This document shows positions 10,900-43,126 of a DNA stretch of 64,000 bases, piece after piece (within the stretch, counting starts at the first letter, position 1; every line of letters begins with the position of its first letter). A program made the position numbers and the translations under genes. The notes below the pieces were generated by a model, which searched no databases, had not been told where the DNA came from, and was given only the letters and a program-made list of their open reading frames with translations. Origin of the DNA: a virus; IMG/VR virus record IMGVR_UViG_3300034069_000907, positions 4,016-68,015 of that record. One strand, given 5' to 3'.

Positions 10900-11295
10900 A
10901 TGGCGGGATTTTCCGATTACGTTGAGAATGCTGTTCTAAATTGGCTTCGGGGTACGGCAATGCCGACTCCTCCTGCCGGGCAGTACGTCGGCCTTTTTTC
11001 AGCAGACCCCACTGATGCAGCCGGCGGCGGAACCGAGGTCACGACCGCCGTGCGTACCGCGGGCCGAGTTGCGGCGACTTTCAGCGCACCGGATGCGAAC
11101 GGCAAGATCGCCAACTCGGCACTGATCGACTTCGGGAATGCAGCCGGTCCCGCGACCGTCTCGCACTTTGCCGTATTCGATGCGGCTACTGGCGGCAACA
11201 AGCTCTGGTCCGGCCCCCTTGCGGCCTCGAAGAGTGTTGCCGCAACCGATCCCGTCGCCTTCGCGGCCGGTGCGCTCAGCCTGACTTCGGATTGA
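10900..11295 (+). CDS. conserved phage structural / fibre-associated protein (131 aa)
   Basis: AGGAGA SD; SDYVENAVLNW...YVGLFSADPTD...HFAVFDAATGGN motif widespread in phage neck and tail modules. Confidence 0.8.
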   Translation: MAGFSDYVENAVLNWLRGTAMPTPPAGQYVGLFSADPTDAAGGGTEVTTAVRTAGRVAATFSAPDANGKIANSALIDFGNAAGPATVSHFAVFDAATGGNKLWSGPLAASKSVAATDPVAFAAGALSLTSD

Positions 11296-11305
11296 GCCTT
11301 CCGCG

Positions 11306-12736
11306 ATGACGATTGCGCAACGTATCACCGTCCGGCTCGGCCCAGACACTCACCGCGTGCGGGTGCCAGGTCTGCACGCCATAGCCCCAGGCGCATTGCT
11401 CGCGGCGGTGATCGCTCTCTCGGATCCTGCGGCGAATCTTACAGTTGGCAAGGCCCTGGCCGCCGACGTGAGCGCCTCCAGCATCGGTCAGGGCGCGCTG
11501 ACGGCCAGCAAGCCTCTGTCGGTCAGTGTTGTTGCGCAGTCGGTCGCGGCGGCATCGCTCTCGATAGGTAAGACCTTCGACAGCGCAGCCTTCGCGACTT
11601 CAAGCGCAACCGGCGTTCTCACGATCCGCCAAGATTTGTTCGGCGCCGGGCCCTCCACCAGCCTCGTTGCTGCCGATCTCATCGTTGGCAAGTCGCTTCA
11701 AGGCGATGTGACAGCGGCTTCCACCGCCGCTGCCGCTCTGACGCTCTCACAGAATCTGGCGGCTAACGTAAACGCGCCAGCCGTCACCACTGCGGTGCTC
11801 ACCGTGGCGCGTAACATGGACGCGACTGCGCTGGCGCAATCCAGCACAAGCGCAACGCTCAACGTATCCCGGGCTTTGGCCGGCGCTGCTACGGCCACCT
11901 CGCTTGCTGCCGCAGCCCTGACAATTACCAAGGGGCTAGCCTCCGATGTGTTTGCCCAGAGCACGACGAGCGCAGTGCTGACGTCTGCCGCCGCTGAGGA
12001 CACCGATGCGGCGGCCTACCTCAACGCGCAGACCACCGCGCCCAGCAGTACAGAACGCTCGCTAGTCAATGCCCTGGTGAAAGGGCTCAAGTCGGACGGC
12101 GATTGGGCCAGCCTCGACAACATCTCGATCTTCGCGGCCGAGACGGTGCAGGCCGCGCGCCTCAACCTCAAGAACCCGGCCAAGGCTTGGTCGGCCATCA
12201 ACCTACCGACGTTCACCGCGAACCGGGGCTACACGGGAGACGGCGCTTCGGCCTATCTGGACCTGGGAGATCTCTGGAATGCGACCGGCAATCAGTTCTC
12301 GCTGAACAGCGCCACCATCGGCGTCTGGTGCAATCTCCAGGGCGGGACCGGCGTGAAGTCCCCGTTCGGCAATCTCGCGAACAACCCTCGCGACACGGTT
12401 CAAGCCCGCGACACGGCTGGGAATGAGACGATCCAGATCAACCAGACGGCTGCCGACACCTTGCAGGCAAGCCCCGGGACACGAACAGGGCACCGCTCGA
12501 TTAGCCGGACAGGGGCGAACGCGGTCTCAGGCTTCTTCAATGGGGCTAAGGTTCTGACCTCCACCACCGTATCAACGAACATCAACACCACAAACGTATC
12601 AGTTCTCCGAAGCGGTACCGGCTATACGGATGACCGTATTGCTTTGCTCTACTGGGGCGCAGGCCTCTCCGACGCTGCCCTGGCGCGCATCCACAATCGC
12701 TTTAGTGCTTACCTCACAGCAAAAGGAGCCGCTTAA
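11306..12736 (+). CDS. fibre-like protein: nine 20-aa repeats plus C-terminal lectin/LamG-like beta domain
   Basis: Exact 20-aa periodicity at 11438-11977; C-terminal domain resembles an internal domain of 13030-16095. Confidence 0.75.
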   Translation: MTIAQRITVRLGPDTHRVRVPGLHAIAPGALLAAVIALSDPAANLTVGKALAADVSASSIGQGALTASKPLSVSVVAQSVAAASLSIGKTFDSAAFATSSATGVLTIRQDLFGAGPSTSLVAADLIVGKSLQGDVTAASTAAAALTLSQNLAANVNAPAVTTAVLTVARNMDATALAQSSTSATLNVSRALAGAATATSLAAAALTITKGLASDVFAQSTTSAVLTSAAAEDTDAAAYLNAQTTAPSSTERSLVNALVKGLKSDGDWASLDNISIFAAETVQAARLNLKNPAKAWSAINLPTFTANRGYTGDGASAYLDLGDLWNATGNQFSLNSATIGVWCNLQGGTGVKSPFGNLANNPRDTVQARDTAGNETIQINQTAADTLQASPGTRTGHRSISRTGANAVSGFFNGAKVLTSTTVSTNINTTNVSVLRSGTGYTDDRIALLYWGAGLSDAALARIHNRFSAYLTAKGAA

Positions 12737-12990: not shown

Positions 12991-13029
12991 CTCACAGTAA
13001 ATACCGCTCGCTATTTGGGGAGCTGAAAA

Positions 13030-16000
13030 ATGGCAAAAGAGACAAGACTTGTACCCGGTGCTTCCAGGGTTTCGGGCACTCAATATGTGAGGGCCCCCGG
13101 AGATGGCGATCTATGGGTCGAAATCACCGAGTGGCCGATGGCGGGTGATGTGCCTCATCCCACCATGAAGGGCCAGTTCCTGCGACATACGTTGCCCAGC
13201 ATGGCAGGCCCCAATGGGGTCGGCGGCAAGCGGGTGTCGATGGATAACCTTATCGCGTCTATTGTTTCGGCCAGCTCCAAAGCCATGATGATTTTTGGAA
13301 GCCCTGGGGTTGCTTACGCAGGATCAGCCTTCAGCTTTCAGCCGATCATTTTCGGTGGTTCAGGATCCAAATCATTCACCCTGTCCGGAGTGCTTCCGTC
13401 CGGATGGTCGTTTTCCTCATCGACTGGCTTGCTCTCTACTTCTTCAGCAATCGTCGGCATGTTCACCGGGCTCGCCATCACGGCGACCGATGCGGCTGGA
13501 GTATCCGCGACGCTGCCCGTCACGTTGATCGTCGCCGCCACCATCGAGGCGGCCTCGTACTTCAACCGGATGACGACGAAGCCTGCCGCAGGCGTCGTCT
13601 CGGCGCTCGACACCATGATCTCGACGCTCCGCACCAGCACCGCATGGGCGAAGCTCGATAACCTCTACTTCTTGGCGCAGGACACCTATCAGGCGGCCTT
13701 GCTGAACATCCTCGGCGCGCATCCGCTCCGCGTGGCCGGCTCGCCCACGTTCTCGGCCCGCGGTGGCGTAGCAGGCGCGGCAAACGCTTCGCTCACCAAC
13801 GGCGTGGTTCTGAGCGAGGGCACGCTCGCCAATTACTCCCTGAACTCCGGACATGTTGGCGTCTTCGTGGGAGCGGCGTCAGCCTCTACCTCGCCAATCG
13901 CCGGCACCGGCGCGACCTTCACGACCCAGTTGCTGGCGAGGTCGGCAGGCGGGAACGCGGGCGGCAAGATCAACGGCGGCACCACCATGTCTGCCGCCGT
14001 GGGAACCCGGGGGGGGCATACGGTCGCCTCGCGGACGGGGGCCGCCGCAAGCGCTCTGTATCGAAATGGTGGGGCGGCTCTCGCAACGACGACGAGCGCA
14101 CCAACCGCCGTCCCGGTCTCGCCTCTCTACGTGCTGCGCGACGATACCGCCTACGCGACGGACACAGTTGCGGCCTTCCACTCAGGGGCCGGGCTGACGC
14201 AGGCCGAGAACCAAATCGTCTATGACGCCCTGAACACCGCGATCACCGCCATCACTGCTCTCGGCCCCGCGCCAGCGGCAAACGCCAATGACTTCGACGT
14301 GGTCGTTTACGGCGGCACCCTCTCGGGCCTGATGGCTGCACAGCGGGCTGCCAACCGGGGCGCTCGCGTGGCCATCGTGGAGCCGAGTGCCGAGCTTGGT
14401 GGCGTCGGCCATCACGGTCTGACCTACTTCGATCTCGGCCTCCGTGGCTCCTACCTGCTCGCCAACAACGGCACCGATCGGTTCTTCAAGGCGATCAACG
14501 CGGCCTACGGGCAGGCGGCCCCACTGACGGCGGCACAGAAAGCGGAGCCGAAGGTCTACGATCAGGTCTTCGCCACGACGCTCGCGCAGACGCGGGCCAC
14601 CACATTCCTATCCTCGCCGCTGGTGACGACGGCCGACGTTCAGAAGGCCGGGTCCGCCATCACGGGCATCAAGACGGCGAGTGGCTGGATCACGGGCCGG
14701 CAGTTTATCGATTGCTCGTACGAGATGGACTTGGCGGCCCTGGCTGGCGCTCCCTACCAAGTCGGACGTGAGAGCGTGTCGACTTACGGCGAGCCAGCGG
14801 CAGGCTTCTCGGCCAAAAGGGTCGCCAACGGCGGGTTCAACTACGGGGTCGACGGCGTCACGCCGAACAGCGGCTACCCCGTGCGTCCGCGCCCGGCGAC
14901 GGCGGACGGTGCGGGCGACGGCTTGATCCAGCCCTACAGCTTCCGCTTCCCGATCACGACGGCGGCTGACCGCTTGCCCTTCCCGGTCCCGCCGGGCGGT
15001 TACATCGCCTCGAAGATGGATCAGTTCGTCGCCGTCCTGACGTCGAAGAACGTCCAGCAATTCACGAGCGTGATCTATGTCGGCGGCGACACCGCGTTGC
15101 AAAACAACAAGTTCTGCATCAACGGCTCTCAGGCCAACATCATCCCCTCGCTGGAGCTTCCCGGCGTCCAGGCCGGCTACCCGGATGGCACCCCGGCGCA
15201 GCGGCAAGCGGTGATTGATGAGCTTCGAACGTGGACCCTTCACGTCCTCTACTGCCTACAGAACGATCCACGCATCAGCGCTAGCCTGCGCACGAGTGCA
15301 GCGGCCTACGGTCTCTGCAACGACGAGTTCGTGAACAACCCGATCAAGGGCTTCCCGAACCTTCCCTACATCCGCGAGAGCCGGCGCCTGAAGGGCGCCT
15401 ACGTGATGACGCAGCTCGACGTCCTTCGGGCGGACAATGCGAACAACACCAGCGGTGGAGCGCGGAACAACGTCAAGGCCAACCGCATCGGGCAGTGGAA
15501 CTACGCGCTCGACTCCCATGCGATGGAAATTTACCCGGACGGCACGAACAACATCGTCGTCACCGGCAACGTTGACCCGAAGTATTCCGAGGTCGACACC
15601 TACGACGTCCCATTCACGGCGCTGCACACGGATCCTGCTGGCGCTGGTCACGTCGCGAACCTGACTGTGCCGCAGTCCTACTCGGCATCCTCCGTTGCCT
15701 GGATGTCGGGTCGCCTCGAGCCCAACTTCGCTCAGCTAGCAGAAGCCGCAGGCGAAGCGGCGATGATCGCGGCGGAAGACGGCGTCGACATCTCGGCGGT
15801 GTCCTACACCAAGCTGTCTCGTCGCCTCGGTTCACCGGTGAACACGGCGCTCCCGGTAATCACGGACACCGGAGGTGGCACCTATTCTGTCTCTAACGGC
15901 ACCTGGAACTTTAGCCCGACAAAGTATGATTTCCAGTGGAAGCTAAATGGCGCGACGGTCACGACCGGTAACGGCGCTGCGACCTACACGAGAGATCCTG

Positions 16001-16095
16001 CGGACGCAGGAAAAACCCTGACGTGTGCCGTGATTGCGACCAATATCTCCTCGGCAGCGCAGGCGGTGTCCACTGGCCTGATGGTAGCGGCCTGA
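13030..16095 (+). CDS. multidomain protein: Ig-like, lectin/LamG-like, FAD-dependent oxidoreductase (PF12831-like), Ig-like
   Basis: FDVVVYGGTLSGLMAA...VAIVE Rossmann motif; FIDCSYEMDL, VGRE...YGE, YIRESRRLKG, YDVPF, LEP..AQLAEAAGEAA; SGVLPSGWSFSSSTG He_PIG-like; PVIT..GGTYSVSNGTW..PTKYDFQW Ig-like. Confidence 0.88.
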   Translation: MAKETRLVPGASRVSGTQYVRAPGDGDLWVEITEWPMAGDVPHPTMKGQFLRHTLPSMAGPNGVGGKRVSMDNLIASIVSASSKAMMIFGSPGVAYAGSAFSFQPIIFGGSGSKSFTLSGVLPSGWSFSSSTGLLSTSSAIVGMFTGLAITATDAAGVSATLPVTLIVAATIEAASYFNRMTTKPAAGVVSALDTMISTLRTSTAWAKLDNLYFLAQDTYQAALLNILGAHPLRVAGSPTFSARGGVAGAANASLTNGVVLSEGTLANYSLNSGHVGVFVGAASASTSPIAGTGATFTTQLLARSAGGNAGGKINGGTTMSAAVGTRGGHTVASRTGAAASALYRNGGAALATTTSAPTAVPVSPLYVLRDDTAYATDTVAAFHSGAGLTQAENQIVYDALNTAITAITALGPAPAANANDFDVVVYGGTLSGLMAAQRAANRGARVAIVEPSAELGGVGHHGLTYFDLGLRGSYLLANNGTDRFFKAINAAYGQAAPLTAAQKAEPKVYDQVFATTLAQTRATTFLSSPLVTTADVQKAGSAITGIKTASGWITGRQFIDCSYEMDLAALAGAPYQVGRESVSTYGEPAAGFSAKRVANGGFNYGVDGVTPNSGYPVRPRPATADGAGDGLIQPYSFRFPITTAADRLPFPVPPGGYIASKMDQFVAVLTSKNVQQFTSVIYVGGDTALQNNKFCINGSQANIIPSLELPGVQAGYPDGTPAQRQAVIDELRTWTLHVLYCLQNDPRISASLRTSAAAYGLCNDEFVNNPIKGFPNLPYIRESRRLKGAYVMTQLDVLRADNANNTSGGARNNVKANRIGQWNYALDSHAMEIYPDGTNNIVVTGNVDPKYSEVDTYDVPFTALHTDPAGAGHVANLTVPQSYSASSVAWMSGRLEPNFAQLAEAAGEAAMIAAEDGVDISAVSYTKLSRRLGSPVNTALPVITDTGGGTYSVSNGTWNFSPTKYDFQWKLNGATVTTGNGAATYTRDPADAGKTLTCAVIATNISSAAQAVSTGLMVAA

Positions 16096-16175: not shown

Positions 16176-16676
16176 ATGCGAGGAATTCTTGCGTTCGTCT
16201 GCGGTGCTCTGATCGCAGCGGCGACGCCTGCTGCCGGCGATTATATTCCCTACCGAGACAAGGCAGGCGGCGACGTCCAGCCGTTCGTGCTATTCTGCTC
16301 TACCGGCGTCGGCTACGCGGCTGCGGCTTGCGGTGGGCCGACGACGCCCATGTTCGTCCTCTCGATGCCTTTCGTAAGATCCGGCACCGGGGATCCAATC
16401 ATTTTCGAAGGCGTCACCACCACCGCCAAGCAATTCGCCGTCACGAAACCGCCGGACGCCACCTCCTACCGGTTCTTGAATCCGTGCAACGTCGATGTCC
16501 GGATCCGGCGGGTGTCCAGTATGTCGGAGAGCGTGACGCTTCGGACCGGGACGCGGTTCTTCGCCAGGACGGCCGAGACGCTCGGCACGAGCAATCCCAT
16601 GTTCGTCTCGATCATCGCCACAGCAACCCCGACCGGTGATTGCTCCCCTGAGCTCCAGTACGGGAACGGCGGCTGA
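16176..16676 (+). CDS. predicted secreted protein (Sec signal peptide, 4 Cys in mature part)
   Basis: GGAGG SD; MRGILAFVCGALIAAATPAAG-D signal peptide pattern. Confidence 0.75.
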   Translation: MRGILAFVCGALIAAATPAAGDYIPYRDKAGGDVQPFVLFCSTGVGYAAAACGGPTTPMFVLSMPFVRSGTGDPIIFEGVTTTAKQFAVTKPPDATSYRFLNPCNVDVRIRRVSSMSESVTLRTGTRFFARTAETLGTSNPMFVSIIATATPTGDCSPELQYGNGG

Positions 16677-17464
16677 TGCGCGCCCTCATCGCACTTCTCA
16701 TCTCGGCGGCGCTGATCGTCGCTCCTGCGCACGGCTCGCCCCGCGCAGTAAGCCCCATGATGGGCGACGGCGTGCCGCGTGCTGCCGGGCCTGCCGGACC
16801 GCAGGGAGATTCTGGGCCTGCCGGCGACGCGGGGCCGAAAGGAGAGACCGGGCCCGCCGGCGCTCCGGGACAGGCTGGCGCCAAGGGCGACACGGGGCCG
16901 AAGGGCGACGCCGGGGCCACCGGAACCGCCGGCATCAAGGGGGACAAGGGCGATGCAGGTGCGAAGGGTGACACGGGAGCGGCGGGAGCAACTGGCGCTC
17001 GCGGCCCTCAAGGAGATCCGGGGAATCCGGGCGCGAGCGGCCCTCAGGGAGTCGCTGGAGCCGCCGGGGCGCCTGGGAAGGATGGTGCTCAGGGTAGCCC
17101 GGGGGTGGCTGGACAGGTGGGAGCGACGGGAGCTCCAGGTGCTCCAGGCGCGACAGGTGCCGCCGGCCCCGTAGGCCCGGCGGGCCCGAAGGCCTCGCAA
17201 TTCGTCTGCAACGCGACGATCAGCGAGACGATCGCGCTGGCCGTCACTCTGGCCGGGATCCGGGAGCGCGCCGGCGTCACCTGCGCGGGCGTCCTGACCA
17301 CGGACATCCTGGAGATCTACCCGACGACGCTCCCGACTGGCTTCGCCGTGCACCACGCGGTCCCTACGGCCGCCAACATCTTCCGGGCGACGATCAGCGG
17401 GCCCGCGCTGGCGATCGGCGCCTCCTACTCCATCCCGGTCGCGGTCTATTCGGTGAATCGATGA
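16676..17464 (+). CDS. collagen-like protein with signal peptide
   Basis: MRALIALLISAALIVAPAHG-S; 45 uninterrupted Gly-X-Y triplets counted; C-terminal globular domain with 2 Cys. Confidence 0.9.
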   Translation: MRALIALLISAALIVAPAHGSPRAVSPMMGDGVPRAAGPAGPQGDSGPAGDAGPKGETGPAGAPGQAGAKGDTGPKGDAGATGTAGIKGDKGDAGAKGDTGAAGATGARGPQGDPGNPGASGPQGVAGAAGAPGKDGAQGSPGVAGQVGATGAPGAPGATGAAGPVGPAGPKASQFVCNATISETIALAVTLAGIRERAGVTCAGVLTTDILEIYPTTLPTGFAVHHAVPTAANIFRATISGPALAIGASYSIPVAVYSVNR

Positions 17465-25308: not shown

Positions 25309-25806
25309 ATGGCTACTTCTAGAGAACAGGCACGGGATATGGCGTACGCCGCAGCGCCTGCGTCAAAGCCAATCCTCACCGTCATCATGCTCGATGAGGA
25401 GTCTTTCAGCGAGGCGGTCTACCTGATCCGCGGCCCTGAAGAGGACACCGTCATCCACCTCGAAACCGGGCAGGCCGTCACAGCCATCGCCTGCGGCTAC
25501 AAGGTGACGCTCCACGGGTTCGATAATAAGGGCCCCACCACCGCCAAGGCCGAAATCTCAAACGTGTCGGGCAAGATCCGCCCATACGTGAAGTCGGCTC
25601 GCAATCCGATCCGGGTGGAATACCGAGCATATTACGAGGACGATTTCTCCAAACCGATCGACATCATAACTGGGTACCTCCTCAAGGAAGTCTCGATCAC
25701 GGCCACGCTCTGCCAGGGAGATCTGTCTTTCGCGGAGATCTCAACGCAAGCCTTTCCACTTCGGACATACGACATCGATACCTATCCTGGCCTTTGGAAT
25801 TCGTGA
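25309..25806 (+). CDS. tail tip protein, DUF1833 / gpL-like
   Basis: AYAAAP...TVIML...ISNVSG...FP...YD...YPGL pattern; position. Confidence 0.75.
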   Translation: MATSREQARDMAYAAAPASKPILTVIMLDEESFSEAVYLIRGPEEDTVIHLETGQAVTAIACGYKVTLHGFDNKGPTTAKAEISNVSGKIRPYVKSARNPIRVEYRAYYEDDFSKPIDIITGYLLKEVSITATLCQGDLSFAEISTQAFPLRTYDIDTYPGLWNS

Positions 25807-26201
25807 TGAACCCCGCCGAATTCATTAAATCCGTCTACGGTGGCAAGTGGTCCGTGACGGATCACTGCTGGGATCTTGTGCGCCGCGGTCAGCGAGAGAT
25901 TTATAGCCGCGAGCTCCCTGAGGTGCTGATTTCCGGGAAGCTCGAGGCGCGTGCCCTGGTGCGTATGTTTGATGAGCACCCCGAGCGAGAGCGCTGGGCC
26001 CGTGTGAACATCCCGGAGGATGGCGCGGTGGTGTTGATGAACAAGGGCGGCGCGCACGGCCGCGCCATCCACGCTGGCATCTACTTCGACCTGGACTGCG
26101 GCGGCATCCTTCACGTGGATGATCCGCACGGCGTCGTCTTCGAGGATGCGCTCACCATCCAGCTTCGCGGCTGGACCTGTGATTATTTCGTGCTCGGATA
26201 A
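25806..26201 (+). CDS. NlpC/P60-family tail assembly protein (gpK-like)
   Basis: TGATG coupling; DHCWDLV (Cys), HAGIY (His), ILHV. Confidence 0.8.
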   Translation: MNPAEFIKSVYGGKWSVTDHCWDLVRRGQREIYSRELPEVLISGKLEARALVRMFDEHPERERWARVNIPEDGAVVLMNKGGAHGRAIHAGIYFDLDCGGILHVDDPHGVVFEDALTIQLRGWTCDYFVLG

Positions 26202-26204
26202 CAA

Positions 26205-29200
26205 ATGCCAAACGTCGTTCAGGTCAACGCAGGGGGGCAAGAGATTGCCGCCCCGATCACACTTGACCAAACAGGTCTACGTCTGCCGCAAGTGATCTCG
26301 CGTCACGTCGACCGCTCGCGACCCTTCATGGTGGCAATCCGCCGTCGCCAGGACATCGATACCCCGCTTGACGAACTGTGGGTGGTCCCTGGCTGGAAGG
26401 TAGAGCCTGTCCGCGATGAAGCCGGCAAGATCCTGGTGCAAGGTAAGGTCAAGCCATGGCCGCGCCGGTACCTGCCGAAGGATTGCTCCGTCGTCATCGT
26501 GTACCTCCCTCTTGGTGGCGGCGGTGCGGCTGGCGGCGGATCCCGAAGCAAAAGCCCGCTCGCTGTGGTTGCCGGGATCGCGGGCCTGGCCCTTGCCGCC
26601 TTCGCTGGACCACTTGCAGGGCTCCTCGCCCCCACGCTGTCAGGCGTCCTCGGCGTTGGTACTGGCGTCGCCACCTTCATCGCGCAAGGGGCGTTCGTCA
26701 TCGGTGGTACGGCGCTACTCGCCTTCTCATCGAAGAGCCGTGCCACGAAGAACGCCACGGACACTCGCGAGCTCTATGGCATTTCGGGGGGAGGTAATCT
26801 CCCGAAGCCAGGCGAGACCATCCCGCGCGTGTACGGACGCGTCTGGATCAAGCCGGATCTTTCTCAGCCGGATTTCTCAAAATACGATGGCGATGAGCAG
26901 GCGCTCTACAAGCGCATGACCCTGTCCGTCGGCCAGGCGCGGGTCTACCAAATCCGCGCCGGTAAGCAGGTGATGTGGACGCTAGAGGGCGGCTGGGTCC
27001 CGCCTTTTAACGATGGCCGCAACCGTGTCGAATTCCTCTATGGCACCCCGTCATCCCTGGTGCCCAGCAACGTGATCTCGGCGACGGGTGTGGGAGGCAC
27101 GCTCCCGCGTAGAACCGAGAACCCGTCGATTGCTGGTCCATTCCCGATCAATCAGCGAGGTGCGCTGATCTCCAAGATCGAGATCTCGTTCCAGTTCCCG
27201 AACGGCATCTCCCGGCAGACCACGTTGAAATCTGGAACCGTGCTTTCCAATCAGCCGGCGGCATGGGCGGTGCTGTTTCAGTATGCGCCGATCAATGAGA
27301 GCGGAGCGATCATCGGTCCATGGCTGGTGCTCTACAACGGCAACTCCGGTGCGGAGGGCGCGCGATTCGGTACAAAACCGATGCGCTACACCAAGTCGAT
27401 CGATGTGCCACCCGGGCGCTACGCAGTGCAGGGCTTTAACGTCCAGCCCGACACCTCCGACGCCTCCGGTCCCGGGGATCGGATCGTTGACGCGGCGCAG
27501 TGGGACTCCGCCGTCGGCTACGTGGCGGACGTGGCAGTTCGGCCCGGGATCACCGAGTGCGCCATGGCCCTGTACGCCGGCAAGGGCAATCAGGCCGCGG
27601 CTTTCGGCGAGATCGAGCTCGACGTGGCGGCGATCATCCCGACCTGGACCGGTTCGCAGTGGGTCGACGTCGAGACGCGCAAAGCGGTGTGGGCCTTCTG
27701 CGACGTGCTCCGCAACGCCGATTACGGCGCCGGCATGTCGGAGGAGAGCATGCTCGGCGCACGCGATCTTGCAGCCTTCTATGCCAACGCGATCACGGAA
27801 TTCGACACCTTCGATGACGTGATCCGCGGCCCCGTTTCTGTCTACGAGGCCGGGGCCACGGTGCTCCTGCCGTTCCGGGCAGAGCCGGTTTACCTGGGGA
27901 GGTACTGGAGCTTCGTTCGCGATGAGCCACGCGCCGTGCGCCGCCATATAATCCACCCGCACCAGATCAGTGCGAGCTCAACGAAGGAGAGCTACGACCT
28001 GGATACCGAATCCGGGAAGCACCACGTCATCGGCGAATTCAATCAGGATGGTGATTATAGGACGCCGAATCAAACCCAGGCAATCTACGGCGAAGCCTCG
28101 CGAACTCCTGTGCGCCAACGCTGGACCGGTGTGAGCAATTACGATCACGCTCAACACCTCACCCGCTGGCGCGCGGCTGTGGGCGCTTTCCGCAACTTAT
28201 CGAAGGATTTCGGCGTCGAGCTTGAGGGCCGAATCTACAAGCGAGGCGACTCTATCTCAGTGCCGACGTGGTTCCTCGAGGAGACGAAGGCCGCCCAGGT
28301 GGTCGACGCCTACGGCTATCGTGTGATGCTCGATTGGGCCGTGCCGCTCGCTGCCAACGATCAGATTGTATTCCGCGATCGAACCGGGCGCGAATGGGGC
28401 CCGGTGGGCATCGTGGGTATGGGGTCTGTCGCCGAAGAGATCGTTCTCTCTGCGGCCGACGTTGATCGCATGGAGATGCAGACCGGCCTGAGCTTCTCAG
28501 AGGTGCTGTCGGACGGCGACACGGAAATGACATCCGTCAGCGTCGGGCAGGTGTCCTACCTCAGCGAGAACTATCTCGTAAAGTCGGTCTCCATGACGGA
28601 TGAGGACCGCGCCACCGTCTCCGTGGTGTACGACGCCCCAGAGGTATTTCAGCAGATCGGGGCACCGATTGTGATACCGCCAGACGGCGCGGCTGGCCTA
28701 TCCGATCCGCTGGTGCCGAAGATCCTGGCCTTCACAGCGACCCGCGTTCAGGTCGCCGCCGGGTACATCTGCCAATATGCAATCACGGCCGGCCGTGGAT
28801 GCGTGAGCTTCGACGTCCAGGTTTCCTACGATAACGGAAACCATTTCGAGGATGTGCAGGAGAACGCGAGCGCCGCAACCGGCTCATTTGTACTAAACCC
28901 TGTCGACCCGATTACAATCGTTCTTCGTGCTCGTCCATATGGATCAACCGGACTGCCGGGGCTTTATTTCTATACTGAGCTCCCATTGCCACAATCAGCC
29001 CTTGGAGTATCTCTCCCGCCGATCGATTACGATGATTTCGTTGATGATGTTAAAGCCCGAATCGCGAAGGGTATTCAAGCGCTAGACAAAGCCATTGAGG
29101 CGACCCTACAGGGGCAAATCAACGCCGCTGCCATTATTGATGAGCAGAGCACCCGACAAGAGGGAGATAGGCTTGTCGCCGAGCGGGTCACAGGTGTGGT

Positions 29201-30116
29201 CGCTCAGATGGGCGTTGATCGTGCCGCAACGGCGGCGATTGAGAGCGCAAGTATCAGCCGCGATGAAGCCCTGAGCAGCCGCATCGAGATCGCCACGGCA
29301 CGAATTGGTGCCAACGAAGCAACAATACAGCAAGAGTCTGAGGCGCGCGTCGCTGGTGATAGTGCGACGGCAAGTCAATTCACGGACGTTCTCGCGCGGA
29401 CCGATGCCGGAACGGCGGCAGGCCGTTTCAGCCTACAGGCAGCGTCGGCGCCTAGTGGGGTGACTGCACGTATTCAGGCACTTCTGGCGACGCAGTACGG
29501 CGGCCAAACTTACGGAGCCGGATACTATCTCGATCTGTTGAACGACGGATCATCGCGGTTCGTCGTTGATGCCAACGCCTTCTACATCACAAGCAACGGT
29601 TCCAGTGTTCCTCTTCTCTCGTTCGATGGATTTACCCTCCGCGTTCCCAATGTGGTTCTAACCGCTGCAAATGTCCCTGTCGGCGTCGCCAATACGCCAG
29701 CGAGATTTGACGCGGCGAACTACACATTGATTGCCGGCGCCGGCCAAGTCTTTCAGGCTATCGACCCCAATATGTCGGCGATAGCCTTTTGCGAGAATGA
29801 TTCATTTCCAACCGTCATCACGCTCAACGGGAAGTTCAGTCTGAACGCTTCGACTACACTCGGCTCAATGAACCTTTTGGTCGATGGAAAGCGTGTCGCT
29901 CCGATTATCGTCTATGGAGACACGAGCGGTGTTCTCGGTTTGTCGGCCACCACCCAATCAAATGGTGGCCAATCATTCAGCTTCAGCGCTACCGCTGTTG
30001 TATTCCTTGGTCCCGGCAACCATCAGATACGCTTTCAATACAACTACAACGGAATTGCAGGCTCAGGTGTAACCATCAACGAGATACACATGGCCGCATT
30101 CACCCCGCGCGCTTAA
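26205..30116 (+). CDS. central tail tip / host-specificity protein (gpJ-like, with N-terminal gpI-like part)
   Basis: GETIPRVYGR, RKAVWAFCDVLRNADYGAG, FVRDEP motifs; coiled coil and DUF1983-like C-terminal region. Confidence 0.88.
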   Translation: MPNVVQVNAGGQEIAAPITLDQTGLRLPQVISRHVDRSRPFMVAIRRRQDIDTPLDELWVVPGWKVEPVRDEAGKILVQGKVKPWPRRYLPKDCSVVIVYLPLGGGGAAGGGSRSKSPLAVVAGIAGLALAAFAGPLAGLLAPTLSGVLGVGTGVATFIAQGAFVIGGTALLAFSSKSRATKNATDTRELYGISGGGNLPKPGETIPRVYGRVWIKPDLSQPDFSKYDGDEQALYKRMTLSVGQARVYQIRAGKQVMWTLEGGWVPPFNDGRNRVEFLYGTPSSLVPSNVISATGVGGTLPRRTENPSIAGPFPINQRGALISKIEISFQFPNGISRQTTLKSGTVLSNQPAAWAVLFQYAPINESGAIIGPWLVLYNGNSGAEGARFGTKPMRYTKSIDVPPGRYAVQGFNVQPDTSDASGPGDRIVDAAQWDSAVGYVADVAVRPGITECAMALYAGKGNQAAAFGEIELDVAAIIPTWTGSQWVDVETRKAVWAFCDVLRNADYGAGMSEESMLGARDLAAFYANAITEFDTFDDVIRGPVSVYEAGATVLLPFRAEPVYLGRYWSFVRDEPRAVRRHIIHPHQISASSTKESYDLDTESGKHHVIGEFNQDGDYRTPNQTQAIYGEASRTPVRQRWTGVSNYDHAQHLTRWRAAVGAFRNLSKDFGVELEGRIYKRGDSISVPTWFLEETKAAQVVDAYGYRVMLDWAVPLAANDQIVFRDRTGREWGPVGIVGMGSVAEEIVLSAADVDRMEMQTGLSFSEVLSDGDTEMTSVSVGQVSYLSENYLVKSVSMTDEDRATVSVVYDAPEVFQQIGAPIVIPPDGAAGLSDPLVPKILAFTATRVQVAAGYICQYAITAGRGCVSFDVQVSYDNGNHFEDVQENASAATGSFVLNPVDPITIVLRARPYGSTGLPGLYFYTELPLPQSALGVSLPPIDYDDFVDDVKARIAKGIQALDKAIEATLQGQINAAAIIDEQSTRQEGDRLVAERVTGVVAQMGVDRAATAAIESASISRDEALSSRIEIATARIGANEATIQQESEARVAGDSATASQFTDVLARTDAGTAAGRFSLQAASAPSGVTARIQALLATQYGGQTYGAGYYLDLLNDGSSRFVVDANAFYITSNGSSVPLLSFDGFTLRVPNVVLTAANVPVGVANTPARFDAANYTLIAGAGQVFQAIDPNMSAIAFCENDSFPTVITLNGKFSLNASTTLGSMNLLVDGKRVAPIIVYGDTSGVLGLSATTQSNGGQSFSFSATAVVFLGPGNHQIRFQYNYNGIAGSGVTINEIHMAAFTPRA

Positions 30117-30130
30117 GAATTGGAAGAGCG

Positions 30131-30430
30131 ATGATTACTGTAAAAGTCACTTCGGAAAAGAACCTTCAGTCGGTGGAAGAGATCGCCGTATTTTTGGAGG
30201 AGGGCTACGCTGATCTCATGAAGCGATCGGCGTTCCAGCCCGGCTCTGTGGTGTCGATCATGAACCGTGCTGGGTTGCCCCCTGACATCGGTGTCGGTGA
30301 CATCGCAGTGGTGCTCTTCTCGGATCCTGCTCCAGCACCGTTCACGCATGTGCGCCTTCTGCACGCGAACGGCTCCACCATGACGTTGCAGATGCAAACA
30401 TCCAGCCTCGGGGAGCGGCCCTCGTCATGA
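30131..30430 (+). CDS. hypothetical protein (99 aa)
   Basis: GGAAGAG SD; ATGA coupling to next ORF. Confidence 0.6.
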   Translation: MITVKVTSEKNLQSVEEIAVFLEEGYADLMKRSAFQPGSVVSIMNRAGLPPDIGVGDIAVVLFSDPAPAPFTHVRLLHANGSTMTLQMQTSSLGERPSS

Positions 30431-30672
30431 GCCGTGAACAAGCGTCTCCCCAAGCGGATGGTATTACCATCGCAGACATGAACGGCCGCATCGAGGAGTT
30501 AGAGCGCCAGCGCAACGAAGCTTTCTCTCGCTGCGCTCACCTAGCCGGCGCCAATGCACTCGCGCGCAAAACCCTACTAGAAGCACTGGCCGAGATTGAG
30601 CGCCTGAACGGTTTAATCCCGCAGGCCGCCGCGCTCGCTCAACCTGATCGAGCCTCGGCGTCTCTCGATTGA
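30427..30672 (+). CDS. hypothetical coiled-coil protein (81 aa)
   Basis: Coupled ORF with heptad pattern. Confidence 0.55.
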   Translation: MSREQASPQADGITIADMNGRIEELERQRNEAFSRCAHLAGANALARKTLLEALAEIERLNGLIPQAAALAQPDRASASLD

Positions 30673-30793
30673 GCAAGCCTGCCGCCCCACGCGGCTCCTG
30701 AACTTCCCATTCACTCATCGCCGTGCCAACGCGCCGGGCCGCTTCTTACGGCCCGTCGCGTCCGTTCGGCTGCCTCATACGAAAGAGCCCAAC

Positions 30794-33289
30794 ATGGCCG
30801 CCCTGCCACAATTCCTGATCTCGACGCAAACTGACCCTTATTGGGAAATTCCGTTCTTCGATGCGAACGGCAATCCACTGTCGGTCGAGGGGCGCGTCTT
30901 CGAAGCCTGGATCGCGCCGTCCACCTCAAAGACCGGGGTGGGCGAGCCGGTTGCTCCGATCAAGGTGCTGACGTTCCAGGATGGATTGTCGTTGGTGGCG
31001 CCGACCGACGGTAGCGGTGATCAGACCGTCAAGAACACCTTCGTGCATCAGGTGTCGCGTGCCTTCGCGCAAGCCAATTTCCCACGCGGTGAACTGACCG
31101 CCGATATCCTTGAGGTGGTGGACGGCGCTCGACGCCTCTTGGTACCGGTACGTCTCCGCTACGACGACCCGGCCGCCATTCGTGACTTCGTTGCGGATCG
31201 GGCAGGCGTAACGTTTGGGGCCGGCCGGCAACCAATTGTTACGCCTGTGGCTGTCGCTGGACAGGCGGGTAGGCGGGGCACTGGCATCCTGACTGGCGCG
31301 CTGCCGCCGCAGCCGTCGGACGGCGAGGATGGAGATTATTGGATCGTTGATCGTTCGGCGAACGGGCAGTCAAACGTTATCTACGGACCTAAGGAAGACG
31401 GTGAGTGGCCGGCTCAGCCATCCTCAGCACTTGGTGTCGGCGGTGTAGCTGACGTGCCAGGCCTTCCCAGCGTCCTTGGTGACAAGGCCGATCTCGATGG
31501 AATCAACGCGCCCGGCACGATGGCCGCGTTCCTGGCATCCACGCTGCCGGCACTCCAGCGTGTGATCCAGATCGGAGGCTACTTCACTCCGGGCGGCGGT
31601 GGTGCGCATCTGCGCATCCGTATCGCTGCCCCGCCCGCACCCAAGCCTTGGCAGTGCCAGATCGCGGATGGCTCCTGGTGGGAGATCTCCGGGGACGATA
31701 TCGACGTGCGGGCCCTCGGTGCCGTCGGCGGCGCCAAGGACATCCCCGTCTCACTGCTGCCGAACGATTACGTTGCCCTGCAGGCCGCGCTCGACTTCAT
31801 CGGCATCACCGGCGGCCGGATTAATGTGCCGGGCCACCTTCAGTTCCGAACCGACTCGCAGCTCTTCGCCCGGATCAATCGCCAACTTCCGCCCGCTGCA
31901 ACTGGGGTCGACATTCACTTCTCGCCTAACTCGCGGATGGATCTGGTATCGACCGGCGGAGGCGTCATCGTTGCTGGTAAGGCGATGAAGAGCCTGCTGA
32001 CCGTTCAATTCAATTCGGATTTCGGGAATATTGGTCCCTTCAAGTCGAAGGTTGAAGGCTTCGAGCTACGCGGCAATCAAATGGCGCAGTTCGGCATCAC
32101 GTCCGACTACACCATGCACATGGCCATCGACCGGAACTGCCTGGATGGGTTCACGGCAAGCTGCATCAACTGGACGGGCTACGGCGTCGCGCGCATCACG
32201 CGCAACATCCTTCGGGGCTACTGTGGAATCCGCTTCCAGGGCGGCGGCGGCGACAGCATCATCGCCTGGAACGATTACTTTCCAACCGCGAACGGCAAAT
32301 GCGTTTGGGTCGGAGCCCTCGGTGGCAACCTTCTGATCGACGGCGGCACTTACAACGGCGAGGGCCAAGTCGGCTCTATCGGCGTCGACATCTCGGTTGG
32401 CGGGCCTGGCGCAGACGAGATCAGGCACGTGACCGTTGCCAATGCAGAGTTCTCCGGCATGCTGTACGGTGTCCGAGCGATCAAGTCGGCCACGGCACGG
32501 AACATCTATGCGCTGACCGTCACCGGCTGCCACACCATTCCGGCCGCGGGTGGCGCGGTCAATACCGGTGTGCTGGCACATCTGACCGGAATCGATACGG
32601 CGCTGGTTCATCACAACATCTGCAATGGCATCCGCGGATCGGCTGCAAGCGAAAGCGCAATCCTGGCCTTTGACTGCGACGACCTTCACATCAGCCATAA
32701 CGTGATCGGGAACTACAGCAAACCTGCTGCCTATTTTTCAAACGTGAGGAACTCGACCTTCACTCACAACAAGATTCGGGACGTTGGCCAGTCCGGGGCA
32801 GGCGGGGTCATCATCGACATCGATGGCGGCACGAACTCGACCCAGTTCAACGACAACACCATCATTCAGACGAGCGATACTTTCGCTCAAAACGGTCTGT
32901 ACGAACGGGCAGGAGCGACGGCAAACGAGGGCCTGCGCAACAAGTGGCAGGGCGTAGCGGTCACAGGTGTCGTTGCGCCCGGGTCCTCGAGCGTCTTTCG
33001 CCGGTTCAGCGGCCCGTTCAGTGAAGGGACAGCCTTTCAGAACGCTACGACTGCGAGTGCGAGCGGTGGTCGAAACCTCTCAGTTGTTCGCGCTTCCGTC
33101 GGTCGATGCAATGTAATATTTTTTTCTCCGCACCCGGATGCGAACTACACTGCCAAGGTAGTTGGCGTAGGTTGCAAGGTTGAGGTCGAAAGCAAGACGG
33201 CAAACGGTTTCACCGTCCTCATGCTGGATCTTGGAAACAACCCTCTAGACGCCGCCTTCGATGTCGAAGTTACGTCAAGGGCCGCCTAA
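30794..33289 (+). CDS. tail spike with right-handed beta-helix (putative polysaccharide depolymerase)
   Basis: N-terminal adaptor; GTGILTG..P....GEDGDYW...YGPK motif; IDVRALGAVG...DYVALQAA entry to a pectate-lyase-like beta-helix; C-terminal small beta domain. Confidence 0.82.
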   Translation: MAALPQFLISTQTDPYWEIPFFDANGNPLSVEGRVFEAWIAPSTSKTGVGEPVAPIKVLTFQDGLSLVAPTDGSGDQTVKNTFVHQVSRAFAQANFPRGELTADILEVVDGARRLLVPVRLRYDDPAAIRDFVADRAGVTFGAGRQPIVTPVAVAGQAGRRGTGILTGALPPQPSDGEDGDYWIVDRSANGQSNVIYGPKEDGEWPAQPSSALGVGGVADVPGLPSVLGDKADLDGINAPGTMAAFLASTLPALQRVIQIGGYFTPGGGGAHLRIRIAAPPAPKPWQCQIADGSWWEISGDDIDVRALGAVGGAKDIPVSLLPNDYVALQAALDFIGITGGRINVPGHLQFRTDSQLFARINRQLPPAATGVDIHFSPNSRMDLVSTGGGVIVAGKAMKSLLTVQFNSDFGNIGPFKSKVEGFELRGNQMAQFGITSDYTMHMAIDRNCLDGFTASCINWTGYGVARITRNILRGYCGIRFQGGGGDSIIAWNDYFPTANGKCVWVGALGGNLLIDGGTYNGEGQVGSIGVDISVGGPGADEIRHVTVANAEFSGMLYGVRAIKSATARNIYALTVTGCHTIPAAGGAVNTGVLAHLTGIDTALVHHNICNGIRGSAASESAILAFDCDDLHISHNVIGNYSKPAAYFSNVRNSTFTHNKIRDVGQSGAGGVIIDIDGGTNSTQFNDNTIIQTSDTFAQNGLYERAGATANEGLRNKWQGVAVTGVVAPGSSSVFRRFSGPFSEGTAFQNATTASASGGRNLSVVRASVGRCNVIFFSPHPDANYTAKVVGVGCKVEVESKTANGFTVLMLDLGNNPLDAAFDVEVTSRAA

Positions 33290-33394
33290 TGCCCTACGCA
33301 ATCTACGTGGCCGTGACGATTGAGCTGATCCCGTCGCTTGTCTGCGCCCGGCCGGCGCGGCACCGCTGAAACTTCCTCATTCTGGAGACTACCT

Positions 33395-34324
33395 ATGACT
33401 GCTGCGCTGAATACCGCGGCGTTCTTCTCCTCTGTCCGACTGAACCCCTTCCCGGGTCATCTCACAACCGGGCAGGTTACAGGTATGCAAGCGATGCTCG
33501 ATGCCGCACCGCCTGACATCGATCTCGACTCTCTGGCGTACTGCTTCGCCACGACTCCCATCGAGACCGGCTGGACCATGCTCCCGGCGCTGGAGAACCT
33601 GAATTACACCACTGCCGCCAACATCCGCAGGACGTGGCCCACAAGGTTCGCCAGCGAGGCCGCAGCGGCGCCCTTCGTCCGTAACCCGAAGGCCCTGGCG
33701 ATCAAGGTCTACGGCGGCCGCATGGGCAACGCGCCCGCCCCGTCGGAGGATGGCTGGATCTACCGCGGCGCCGGCCTTGTGCAGAGCACGGGCGAGGAGA
33801 ACGCCATCCGCGCCACCAAGCGCCTGCGCGAGCTCGGCTACCTCACGAAGGATCAGAGCTTCGTCACCAACCCGGAGCTCTATCTCGTGCCGATCCTGGC
33901 GGCCGCCGTCATGTTCATCGGCATGGAAGAGGGTTGGTTCACCGGCAAGAAGCTGTCCGACTTCTTCCGCGCCGGCAGGGCGGACGCCGTCGGGGCCCGG
34001 GCCATCATCAACGGCAACAACAAGGCCGCCGAGTTCGCGCTCCACTGGAAGGGCTTCAAAACGGCTCTCGAGAAGGCGGGGTACAAGCCGGGCGCGGTGG
34101 TTTCCAAAATCCCCGTCCCGCCCGTAATTGTAAATCCGATTTCGGAAAATCCAAAAATGCCTGAAATTAAATCAAATGGCGAGGTGCCGGTGTCGAAACC
34201 CGAAACCTTGCCTGCGCCAAAGCCGGTTGTCGTGCCGGCCGACAAGCCGCTGACCCCGCCCAAGGCGGAGCCGCCCAAGACCCTCGCGGAGGCCATCCGC
34301 CGCCGCATCTTCGGAGTGTCGTAG
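33395..34324 (+). CDS. endolysin, glycoside hydrolase family 19, with Pro/Lys-rich C-tail
   Basis: ATG 33395 after GGAG; ATTPIETG, ENLNY, YGGRMGN, DGWIYRGAGLVQSTG, ARAIING motifs. Confidence 0.88.
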   Translation: MTAALNTAAFFSSVRLNPFPGHLTTGQVTGMQAMLDAAPPDIDLDSLAYCFATTPIETGWTMLPALENLNYTTAANIRRTWPTRFASEAAAAPFVRNPKALAIKVYGGRMGNAPAPSEDGWIYRGAGLVQSTGEENAIRATKRLRELGYLTKDQSFVTNPELYLVPILAAAVMFIGMEEGWFTGKKLSDFFRAGRADAVGARAIINGNNKAAEFALHWKGFKTALEKAGYKPGAVVSKIPVPPVIVNPISENPKMPEIKSNGEVPVSKPETLPAPKPVVVPADKPLTPPKAEPPKTLAEAIRRRIFGVS

Positions 34325-36441: not shown

Positions 36442-37524
36442 ATGGGCACGATCCTCGAGCGCAAGCGCCGGGACGGGACAACCGGATACCACGCTCAGAT
36501 CTCGGTCCAAAGGGATGGGGTAGCGCACCGGGAGACCAAGACGTTCGATCGGCGCCCCGCTGCCGCGGCCTGGATCAAGAAGCGCGAGAAGGACCTCACG
36601 GCGCCCGGCGCGCTGGAGCGACAACGGGCGAACGATCCGACGCTCGGCGACGCGATCGACCGCTACATCCGCGAGTCCGCCAGGGAGATAGGTCGGACCA
36701 AGGCGCAGGTGCTCCGCAGCATCAAGGCGTTTGAGATCGCGGAGCGGCCGTGCTCGCAGATCGGTAGCGCTGAGATCGTGGCATTCGCGCAGGAGCTCTC
36801 CGAAGGCCGCCAGCCGCAGACAGTCGGCAACTATCTCGCGCACCTCTCATCCATCGTGGCGCTCGCCCGGCCGGCCTGGGGCTACAAGCTCGACACCAAT
36901 GCGATGAAGGATGCGCAGGTGGTGCTCAAGAGGCTGGGCATCACGTCGAAGTCCCGGCAACGCGAGCGCCGGCCGACGATGGCGGAGATGGATCTCCTGA
37001 TGCAGCACTTCGGCGGCGTGCAGCACCGCCGGCCGGCCTCGATCCCGATGCAGCGGATCGTGGCGTTCGCGCTCTTCTCGACGCGCCGGCAGGAGGAGAT
37101 CATCCGCATCACATGGTCGGACCTGGATGAGGCGCACTCGCGCGTCCTGGTGCGCGACATGAAGAACCCGGGGCAGAAAGTCGGCAACGACGTGTGGTGC
37201 GAGCTCCCGCTCGAGGCGCTCGCGATCATCGCCGCCCTGCCCCGATCCGATGCGCGGATCTTCCCCTACAGCACGGATGCGATCTCGGCGGCGTTCACGC
37301 GCGCCTGCGCCTTCCTGGGGATCGAGGATCTTCACTTCCACGACATGCGCCACGAGGGCGTTACGCGGCTCTTCGAGATGGGGCGGACCGTGCCGCTCGC
37401 CGCCTCGGTATCAGGGCATCGGAGTTGGGGTAGCCTTCAGCGCTACACCCACGTTCGGCAGACCGGGGATCGCTGGGCGGGCTGGCCGTGGCTCGAGGTA
37501 GTCACGGCGCCCGCCCTCCCCTAG
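36442..37524 (+). CDS. int: tyrosine integrase, dusA-associated (DAI) type
   Basis: STRRQEEI (Arg), HFHDMRH (HxxR), SGH..W..LQRY (His, Tyr); N-terminal arm-binding domain; dusA fragment adjacent. Confidence 0.93.
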   Translation: MGTILERKRRDGTTGYHAQISVQRDGVAHRETKTFDRRPAAAAWIKKREKDLTAPGALERQRANDPTLGDAIDRYIRESAREIGRTKAQVLRSIKAFEIAERPCSQIGSAEIVAFAQELSEGRQPQTVGNYLAHLSSIVALARPAWGYKLDTNAMKDAQVVLKRLGITSKSRQRERRPTMAEMDLLMQHFGGVQHRRPASIPMQRIVAFALFSTRRQEEIIRITWSDLDEAHSRVLVRDMKNPGQKVGNDVWCELPLEALAIIAALPRSDARIFPYSTDAISAAFTRACAFLGIEDLHFHDMRHEGVTRLFEMGRTVPLAASVSGHRSWGSLQRYTHVRQTGDRWAGWPWLEVVTAPALP

Positions 37525-41434: not shown

Positions 41435-43126
41435 TTAAATTCCGTTGAGGGTATTCCGGCGCTTCACCACCATGGAGCGCCAGAGGCCGTCGAGAACCGG
41501 ATCCGCGCCGGCCTTCAGAAGCTCGGTGCGCTCGGGGAATGTCGCGGTGCCGATGTCGTTGACCACGGGCACGGTCTCCGCGGCCCCGAGCTCCGCGGCG
41601 AGGCGCTCGGTGAAGGCCTTCGCCCGCGCCGCCACGTCGTCGCCGGCACCTTCCCCGTCAGCAGGTGGAGCCGTGGGCTCTTCAGGCTTCGGATCCGGCT
41701 TGCGCTCCTTGGCGACGCTGAGGCCGTTCCAAATCGTCTCCATCTGCTTCTGGAGCGCCTTCCGATCCTCGACAGTCATCTTGCCGCTCTCAACGAGCTC
41801 CCGACGGATTTCCTTTGTGCCGGCCCACAACTCGGTGAGGCGCGCGTAGTCGACTCCCGGGGCCTGCATCTCCGCGATGATCCAGGCGCGATACTCCTCG
41901 TGTGACGACGTCGGCGGACCATCGGCAGGTGGAGCACCCGGGCCGTCAGCATCCGCGCGCGCATCGGACTGCGCCTTGAACTCCAGGTATTCGGGCTCCC
42001 GCACCTCGACCATGCCGGCGGGTGCCGTGCCGTCATCGGTCTGGACGTAGGCCTTGCGGTCCGGATCGATGAAGAACCGCGGCTTGTGCGCGATCGGCTT
42101 CACGCGAGCGAGGGCGGCCTCGTGCATGTCCTGGTACCGCTGGCGCTCCGTCATCGAGAGCTCACCCTCTACGGTGCCCTCGAAGGTCTCGTGCGCCTGG
42201 TCGACGTCCGACGTGGTCTTGCAGGTTGCGAACAGGTCGCGCGCCTCATCGAGCCAGGCCTCCGGATCGAAGGGCTCATCATCGAGGGCATCCTCATCCT
42301 CCTGGTCGGAATTGAAATTCACGGTGCTGACCGGCTTCTCTTCCGTGAATTCGGCATCCTCAACCGGCGGTGCAGTCGGGCCCTCGGCCGCCCGCGGTGC
42401 CGGCTTCTCTTCGTCGGCAGGGGGAGCGGGCGGCGCCTCGATCGCAGGCGCGCCGGGCTGCTCAGAAATCGGCACGCTGGCGATCGGCGCCAGCATGGCC
42501 TGGCCTTCCATCTCCTCAGCGGCATAGTCGTTGCCGATCTCCTCCGGGAACGCCTTGCGCAGCGCGGCCGCCTCGGCGCACTTCTCGAGTTGCGCGTTGC
42601 CGCGCTTCTTCCACATCTCGTTAGGCTCGGTGCTGCGGCCCTTCTTGGCGTAGGTCTCGAGCCAATAGACTTTCGGCCCGACGAACTTGCACTTCACGCC
42701 ATCGAGGTTCCGATAGACCGTCATCCTGGCCCACTCGGGGAAGGTGAGCGTCACCCCATTGCCAAAGTCGTGGGTGATCCGCGGGCCTTCCTCCGTCTCG
42801 TCGGCGCCGGCGTATTGCCCGGTGCGGAACGCAGTGGTCCGGAGCTCGGAGATCCCGGGCCACACAGTCTCCACCTCCATGCGGCGCTGAGAGTCCCACA
42901 TGGGAACGATGTGCACCGGACGCTTGAACGGATCGAGCTTGCGCGTCTTGCAGTAGGCAAGCGCCATAACGACGGAATCGATGGACTTCGCCGCGGGGTA
43001 AACCGCCCCGACCAGGACGTTCCACGACGTCTTGTCGATCCCCAGGCCGTCGAAACGCTCCGCGATCGCCGGGTGCCAGGGTAGACGTGGGCCTTCAAAT
43101 ACGGCCACCTGCTGATTGTCGCTCAT
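41435..43126 (-). CDS. bet: single-strand annealing recombinase Bet (RecT/Red-beta family) with long acidic C-terminal extension
   Basis: YCKTRKLDPFKRPVHIV, GISELRTTAFRTGQYAG, MWKKRGNAQLEKCAEAAALRKAFP motifs. Confidence 0.9.
   Translation of the reverse strand: MSDNQQVAVFEGPRLPWHPAIAERFDGLGIDKTSWNVLVGAVYPAAKSIDSVVMALAYCKTRKLDPFKRPVHIVPMWDSQRRMEVETVWPGISELRTTAFRTGQYAGADETEEGPRITHDFGNGVTLTFPEWARMTVYRNLDGVKCKFVGPKVYWLETYAKKGRSTEPNEMWKKRGNAQLEKCAEAAALRKAFPEEIGNDYAAEEMEGQAMLAPIASVPISEQPGAPAIEAPPAPPADEEKPAPRAAEGPTAPPVEDAEFTEEKPVSTVNFNSDQEDEDALDDEPFDPEAWLDEARDLFATCKTTSDVDQAHETFEGTVEGELSMTERQRYQDMHEAALARVKPIAHKPRFFIDPDRKAYVQTDDGTAPAGMVEVREPEYLEFKAQSDARADADGPGAPPADGPPTSSHEEYRAWIIAEMQAPGVDYARLTELWAGTKEIRRELVESGKMTVEDRKALQKQMETIWNGLSVAKERKPDPKPEEPTAPPADGEGAGDDVAARAKAFTERLAAELGAAETVPVVNDIGTATFPERTELLKAGADPVLDGLWRSMVVKRRNTLNGI

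Follow-up and report, generated by a model that had tools for sequence, protein, structure and literature searches.

A 64-kb stretch of the 68.7-kb IMG/VR virus record IMGVR_UViG_3300034069_000907, hereafter the window, encodes a 1021-residue protein, P0001 (13030-16095, + strand, from the open reading frame list and its translation), in which a complete PF12831 flavin adenine dinucleotide (FAD) oxidoreductase domain lies between immunoglobulin (Ig)-like and lectin-like domains. The new observation reported here is that at least six other phages and prophages have proteins in tail-fibre position whose C-terminal end is a related PF12831 domain. With moderate confidence, P0001 is read as a fibre-type appendage whose PF12831 working end recognises, and most likely alters, a glycan on the host surface. 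The known enzymes of phage appendages are, to our knowledge, hydrolases, lyases or esterases, and a flavoprotein-type domain recurring at the fibre ends of unrelated phages would broaden phage-host recognition by a new catalytic fold and perhaps by oxidative chemistry. The first-pass annotation of this DNA had proposed a virion-displayed flavoenzyme of a class not known to be described. No characterisation of PF12831 or FAD oxidoreductases in virions or tail fibres was found in the literature searched, although three Rhizobium phage records in GenBank already bear the automatic label 'FAD dependent oxidoreductase domain-containing protein'.

That the enzyme domain is complete, as first annotated, is borne out by the Pfam profile, whose full length (1-416 of 416) is matched by residues 423-933 at 208.9 bits (cut-off 27; E 2.1e-61); a six-frame search of the genome gave the same result. 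Other flavoprotein families match only the first ~40 residues of the domain, which correspond to the Rossmann turn. All six motifs quoted in the first-pass annotation are present (YGGTLSG at 427-433, FIDCSYEMD at 559-567, GRE..YGE at 579-588, YIRESRR at 780-786, YDVPF at 858-862 and RLEP at 895-898) and coincide with columns conserved across the family. P0001 retains 16 of 16 invariant columns and 50 of the 54 columns of at least 90% conservation; its invariant residues are R580, E581, E588, D630, R725, Y780, R782, R786, D828, R895 and E897, and R639 and H830 are nearly so. The acidic residue after beta-2 (V-E-P) and the GG motif (L-G-G) are kept as well. The dinucleotide loop reads G-G-T-L-S-G, and G-[GA]-T-x-x-G is the loop in most of 130 relatives. 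The idea that a degenerate GxGxxG signals a dead domain was therefore dropped, since the middle threonine is the subfamily norm and not a mark of decay. A hydroxyl residue in place of the canonical second glycine of the loop is also found in bona fide FAD enzymes.

The AlphaFold2 model of the domain is a confident two-domain flavoprotein, with a predicted local distance difference test (pLDDT) of 90.7 and a predicted template-modelling (TM) score of 0.93. Its FAD-binding subdomain aligns with solved flavoenzymes at Z scores of 15-16 (root-mean-square deviation 2.9-3.6 Å over ~220 residues). This subdomain superposes on the class of fumarate reductase, urocanate reductase and 3-ketosteroid dehydrogenase (1qo8, 6t85, 4c3x) and on the uncharacterised 3nlc, at 12-16% identity, whereas the inserted substrate domain of ~270 residues has no solved counterpart. 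Taken whole, the domain resembles predicted PF12831 models (TM 0.8-0.89). A sequence search of the PDB with the domain aligned the Rossmann stretch only, and Foldseek searches of PDB, Swiss-Prot and BFVD returned no whole-domain relative. Modular tail fibres and tailspikes can bear a distal domain that depolymerises capsule, exopolysaccharide (EPS) or lipopolysaccharide (LPS). P0001 resembles them in being encoded in the structural operon, in its succession of N-terminal attachment part, spacers and a distal domain predicted to be aimed at a host surface glycan, and in having homologues in the tail-fibre slot after the tail-tip genes. It departs from them in the neck-region position of its gene and in a distal domain of predicted function with a two-domain flavoprotein fold; no match of P0001 to beta-helix, sialidase, lyase or esterase folds was found in PDB or BFVD.

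The flanking modules named in the first-pass annotation were also recovered. Residues ~85-170 share ~41% identity with repeats of long surface proteins that carry PF05345 (He_PIG) and are modelled as an Ig beta-sandwich (pLDDT ~95), with no direct Pfam match to PF05345 on P0001 itself. Residues 170-412 match phrog_26223 (E 1e-18), and residues 177-407 are 32% identical to the C-terminal domain of a 476-aa protein encoded upstream (BLASTP E 1e-22). The predicted structure of this region, which has no Pfam match, is poor in one model (pLDDT 30-60). The ESM-Atlas model of the protein, however, resembles viral clusters with TM scores reaching 0.93 and Laminin_G_3/ConA-like clusters with TM scores of 0.68-0.88, and a LamG-like domain is probable. 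Residues 936-1021 resemble AIR9-A9/SCAB-Ig clusters of the Atlas (TM 0.87-0.90), an Ig-like domain type repeated in many long surface proteins, with as many as 33 copies in tandem. For the first 84 residues, a word-index search with residues 1-415 found no relatives, and in the model of residues 1-420 only the Ig domain is reliable. As noted in the first pass, there is no signal peptide, the N terminus being polar. A strong Shine-Dalgarno sequence, GGGGAG (13017-13022), lies 7 nt upstream of the ATG; the alternative start at Met37, chosen by a gene caller elsewhere, has no comparable ribosome-binding site. A metagenomic protein of 1482 aa, P0140, consists of six tandem lectin-like domains of the phrog_26223 type.

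Phage relatives of the domain come in two architectures: class B, fibre-type proteins ending in PF12831, and class A, in which the phrog_26223 lectin-like domain is fused directly to PF12831. The latter was found in Rhizobium phages RHph_Y55, RHph_I72 and RHph_N3_19 and in six IMG/VR contigs. The class B genes of L007/L008, L009, L010, L012 and L013 directly follow the tail-tip genes and precede those for lysis; the protein of L014 has a fibre-like N terminus. In a tree of FAD domains, P0001 is sister to the class B protein of L012 (45% identity, its closest relative) within the fibre clade, class A is a separate clade among cellular sequences, and there are two further viral groups, one from giant-virus bins. 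Since a class-A-type lectin domain is joined to a class-B-type flavoprotein domain, P0001 is a mosaic. Like P0001, the Rhizobium proteins have the lectin-like domain before PF12831 and are encoded in a structural module, but they share only ~26% identity with it in the FAD domain and lack the He_PIG and C-terminal Ig domains. Full-length phage copies retain 44-52 of the 54 conserved columns, a pattern that speaks for selection to keep the function of their cellular counterparts. Two further proteins, P0003 (Roseomonas) and P0141, were set aside on account of contexts that are not clearly phage.

All three Rhizobium genes adjoin portal and MuF-like head-morphogenesis genes, from which it could be argued that P0001 is an internal head or ejected protein that is stored close to the portal and enters the host on infection. 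This is very improbable: P0001 has two Ig-like domains and one lectin-like domain, its nearest FAD-domain relatives are proteins in tail-fibre position, and its gene adjoins fibre genes, not the portal. Ig-like and lectin-like domains are typical of exposed decorations.

Gene order in the window, established by PHROG and Pfam scans (Table 1), places P0001 in the late structural operon, co-oriented, after the adaptor and head-closure genes and before the tail-completion genes. The virion operon of the first-pass annotation is thus upheld, its members being terminase, portal, protease, capsid, adaptor, tail completion and tape measure, and P0001 is a member of an accessory appendage module set between head closure and tail completion. 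The upstream 476-aa neighbour, in which nine repeats with an exact period of 20 residues span residues 44-223, resembles a fibre whose shaft ends in a lectin-like knob. The phage is a siphophage, and it is temperate, as indicated by integrase, endolysin, RecT-like annealing protein and DnaB-like helicase together. No close relative of it was found in an IMG/VR scan with P0001 patterns or in a genome-collection scan with the capsid protein.

A temperate lifestyle, together with a family that is an oxidoreductase by name, lends some credit to P0001 being moron-type cargo or a cytoplasmic enzyme expressed from the late operon that alters, for instance, the envelope or metabolism of the lysogen or infected cell. 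The two proteins encoded at 16176-17464 point the same way, their N termini being signal-peptide-like, which is odd for virion parts that assemble in the cytoplasm. Yet no separate promoter or terminator was found for P0001 (candidate sites in its flanks do not rise above chance), which makes it unlike a moron; Ig-like and lectin-like domains lie on both sides of the enzyme domain, the lectin-like one is paralogous to the head of the adjoining repeat fibre, and relatives occupy tail-fibre positions in six other phages. A non-virion role is accordingly judged improbable. The virion display proposed in the first pass is strengthened by these homologues and by the want of separate transcription signals, with presence in the particle still a matter of inference. 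From sequence and context, we infer with good support that P0001 is a virion appendage targeting a glycan, and the position of its gene suggests attachment at the neck or head-tail junction.

The case for a glycan target draws on the cellular relatives. In an exhaustive HMMER search, 7313 proteins matched at E<=1e-3, the cellular sources being mainly Verrucomicrobiota, Planctomycetota, Bacteroidota, Acidobacteriota and Actinomycetota. Cellular FAD domains are 31-42% identical to that of P0001 across ~510 residues, and the G-[GA]-T-x-x-G clade, which P0001 matches structurally at TM 0.84-0.89, has the same invariant Arg/Glu/Asp/Tyr/His set. Among the 96 relatives whose FAD domain begins no more than 70 residues from the N terminus, a hydrophobic leader is present in 93 and a Tat-like motif in 14. 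Where P0001 bears phage fibre modules, cellular members bear signal peptides and carbohydrate-binding module (CBM), glycoside hydrolase (GH) or sulfatase partners, often CBM5/12, Golvesin_C, GH130/GH32N and proteins named polygalacturonase (GH28) or arylsulfatase. Judged by these leaders and partners, the cellular family is extracytoplasmic and glycan-linked. The statement in the first pass that bacterial members often sit near polysaccharide-utilisation genes is only partly matched: SusC/SusD pairs lie beside 3-4 of 27 sampled loci, with a rhamnosidase at two and GH2 at two, and a firmer tie to glycans comes from the domain fusions (CBMs, GH28, GH130 and sulfatase). When genomes were scanned a second time, now with the class A alignment, the only matches were cellular FAD-domain homologues. 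Atlas clusters combining PF12831 with Golvesin_C are automatically named 'putative xanthan lyase', a lead that was abandoned because the name follows the Golvesin/Xly-CBD-like module and not PF12831; the P. alginolyticus xanthan lyase is listed as PL8 (PMC10881899).

In the proposed mechanism, the short N-terminal part would presumably fix P0001 to the particle, followed by the Ig-like spacer, the lectin-like jelly roll, the PF12831 domain and the terminal Ig-like domain. Loading with FAD would take place in the cytoplasm, while the particle is being assembled. The PF12831 domain would recognise a host surface polysaccharide (EPS, capsule or LPS) and most likely also cleave or alter it, a step suggested by the residues conserved among cellular enzymes, nearly all of which it keeps. 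The invariant Arg/Glu/Asp/Tyr/His set, together with the analogy to the fumarate-reductase class, suggests that the substrate is acidic. The likeliest reaction of the domain would be flavin-dependent oxidation of a sugar C-H or C-OH, probably beside a carboxylate given the many invariant arginines, and O2 would serve as acceptor outside the cell. FAD binding and redox turnover by P0001 itself are likewise predicted from sequence.

Several observations weigh against this reading. Four of the columns with at least 90% conservation are altered in P0001 (G480N, G566M, E845T and G904A), as is a slightly less conserved one (H888S). No PDB or Swiss-Prot entry contains the substrate domain, and the fold matches concern the FAD-binding subdomain only; with no solved structure or reviewed function in the PF12831 clade, its chemistry is a guess. 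Literature searches returned no virion proteomics or glycan-action assay for such proteins. The P0001 gene lies in the neck region, whereas those of the six comparators lie at the tail tip. Most cellular relatives appear to be Sec-exported, which is uncommon for FAD proteins but not without precedent. The dinucleotide loops of RHph_Y55 and RHph_I72 are degenerate (G-F-E-A-Q-T and G-F-T-V-Q-S), while the conserved Arg/Glu/Asp/His residues in the rest of the domain are kept, a combination hinting that FAD may be dispensable for the shared function.

These last two points, with the replacement of V-E-P by G-G-W-R in class A copies, which removes the usual acidic residue after beta-2, indicate that the function may be independent of flavin. 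P0001 would then sit on the particle as a pure receptor binder, or as a redox-neutral enzyme akin to a lyase or hydrolase, with the flavin structural or absent; an extracellular virion, moreover, has no supply of reductant. We regard this as unlikely, if a serious alternative. In P0001 itself the loop is typical of the subfamily, the acidic residue after beta-2 and the GG motif are present, and 50 of the 54 conserved columns are kept. In a pure binder, drift would be expected at catalytic positions. Nor do the 'xanthan lyase' names speak for lyase chemistry, stemming as they do from the attached Golvesin/Xly-CBD.

Returning to P0001 as a glycan-altering appendage, a broader proposal can be put forward tentatively, namely that the G-[GA]-T-x-x-G clade is an unrecognised flavin-dependent carbohydrate-active family, taken up several times by phages as a distal fibre domain and yielding the first redox phage depolymerases or glycan modifiers. 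If true, there would be phage glycan modifiers that use flavin redox instead of hydrolysis, beta-elimination or deacylation. Fibres of the P0001 type would also give access to an orphan family of very large size, mostly secreted and from glycan-degrading phyla. The substrate of a phage fibre is a single, defined one, the surface polysaccharide of its own host, and biochemical de-orphanisation would thus be tractable.

Table 1. Features of P0001, its neighbourhood in the window and related phage loci (L numbers denote comparator loci)
Feature	Locus	Coordinates	Strand	Basis or context
P0001, modular appendage protein (putative), whole gene	window	13030..16095	+	ORF list, translation, RBS (ribosome-binding site)
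N-terminal region, aa 1-84, presumed attachment part	window	13030..13281	+	no homologue; low-confidence model
He_PIG-type Ig-like domain, aa ~85-170	window	13282..13539	+	homologous PF05345-protein repeats; beta-sandwich model
Probable ConA/LamG-like jelly-roll domain (phrog_26223 type), aa 170-412	window	13537..14265	+	phrog_26223; paralogy; Atlas structural matches
Complete PF12831 FAD_oxidored domain, aa 423-933	window	14296..15828	+	Pfam, AlphaFold2 model, conserved residues
C-terminal Ig-like domain (AIR9-A9/SCAB-Ig type), aa 936-1021	window	15835..16092	+	repeats in surface proteins; Atlas TM
Large terminase	window	2787		
Portal	window	4631		
Protease	window	6082		
Capsid	window	6956		
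Head-tail adaptor	window	9538		
115-aa protein	window	10511		
gp80-like chain-fibre protein, 131 aa	window	10900-11295	+	PF23140 E 2e-35; phrog_240
476-aa fibre-like protein: nine 20-aa repeats and ConA-like head paralogous to P0001 aa 177-407	window	11306-12736	+	BLASTP E 1e-22, repeat register, phrog_26223
84-aa protein	window	12736		
166-aa protein, hydrophobic signal-peptide-like N terminus	window	16176-16676	+	
Collagen-like protein, long G-X-Y run, signal-peptide-like N terminus	window	16676-17464	+	
Tail completion gp17	window	17461		
Neck1	window	17861		
Tape measure	window	19627		
Distal tail proteins	window	25309-33289		
Endolysin	window	33338-34324	+	
Integrase	window	36442-37524	+	
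RecT-like annealing protein	window	41435-43126	-	
DnaB-like helicase	window	56002-57996	+	
P0011, class B	L007/L008			directly after lambda-type gpM-L-K-J, before holin
P0019, class B	L009 (prophage)			after tail-tip genes, before amidase; phage-tail-repeat match
P0016, class B	L010			after tail tip, before GH108 and holin
Class B protein	L012			after tape measure and phrog_1101 tail protein
Class B protein	L013			after tape measure and tail protein
Class B protein	L014			N terminus matches tail-fibre PHROGs
Degenerate-loop PF12831 gene, RHph_Y55	L001	8230-10788		
Degenerate-loop PF12831 gene, RHph_I72	L003	6729-9314		
Class B partner gene	L005	12257-13144		
Class B partner gene	L007	13259-14137		
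Class B partner gene	L009	14682-15605		
Class B partner gene	L010	12506-13441		
Class B partner gene	L012	9296-10414		
Class B partner gene	L013	9698-10627		
Class B partner gene	L014	9606-10472		

A class B gene is always followed by a partner gene of ~290-370 aa (Table 1), the partners matching one another pairwise at E values down to 1e-78, with a weak Laminin_G_3 match in one copy. The partner may act as a chaperone or form a second subunit; no such gene is present in the window. The possibility that the fused lectin-like domain is a homologue of these ~300-aa partners was dropped at an hhalign probability of 0.2%.

The 131-aa neighbour encoded upstream of the repeat fibre matches PF23140, the family of the podophage GP4 fibre I protein gp80. 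Proteins of the gp80 type are fibre monomers that form chain-like fibres in podophages (PMC13730344). The neighbour thus parallels GP4 gp80 and the chain-like fibres of phage A1002 (gp40/gp41), but those phages are podophages and the match here sits in a siphophage. Finally, two IMG/VR contigs assigned to giant-virus metagenome-assembled genomes, L024 and L027 (GC content 0.29-0.30), encode PF12831 proteins of 1259 and 1525 aa, respectively, which form a branch of their own in the tree.

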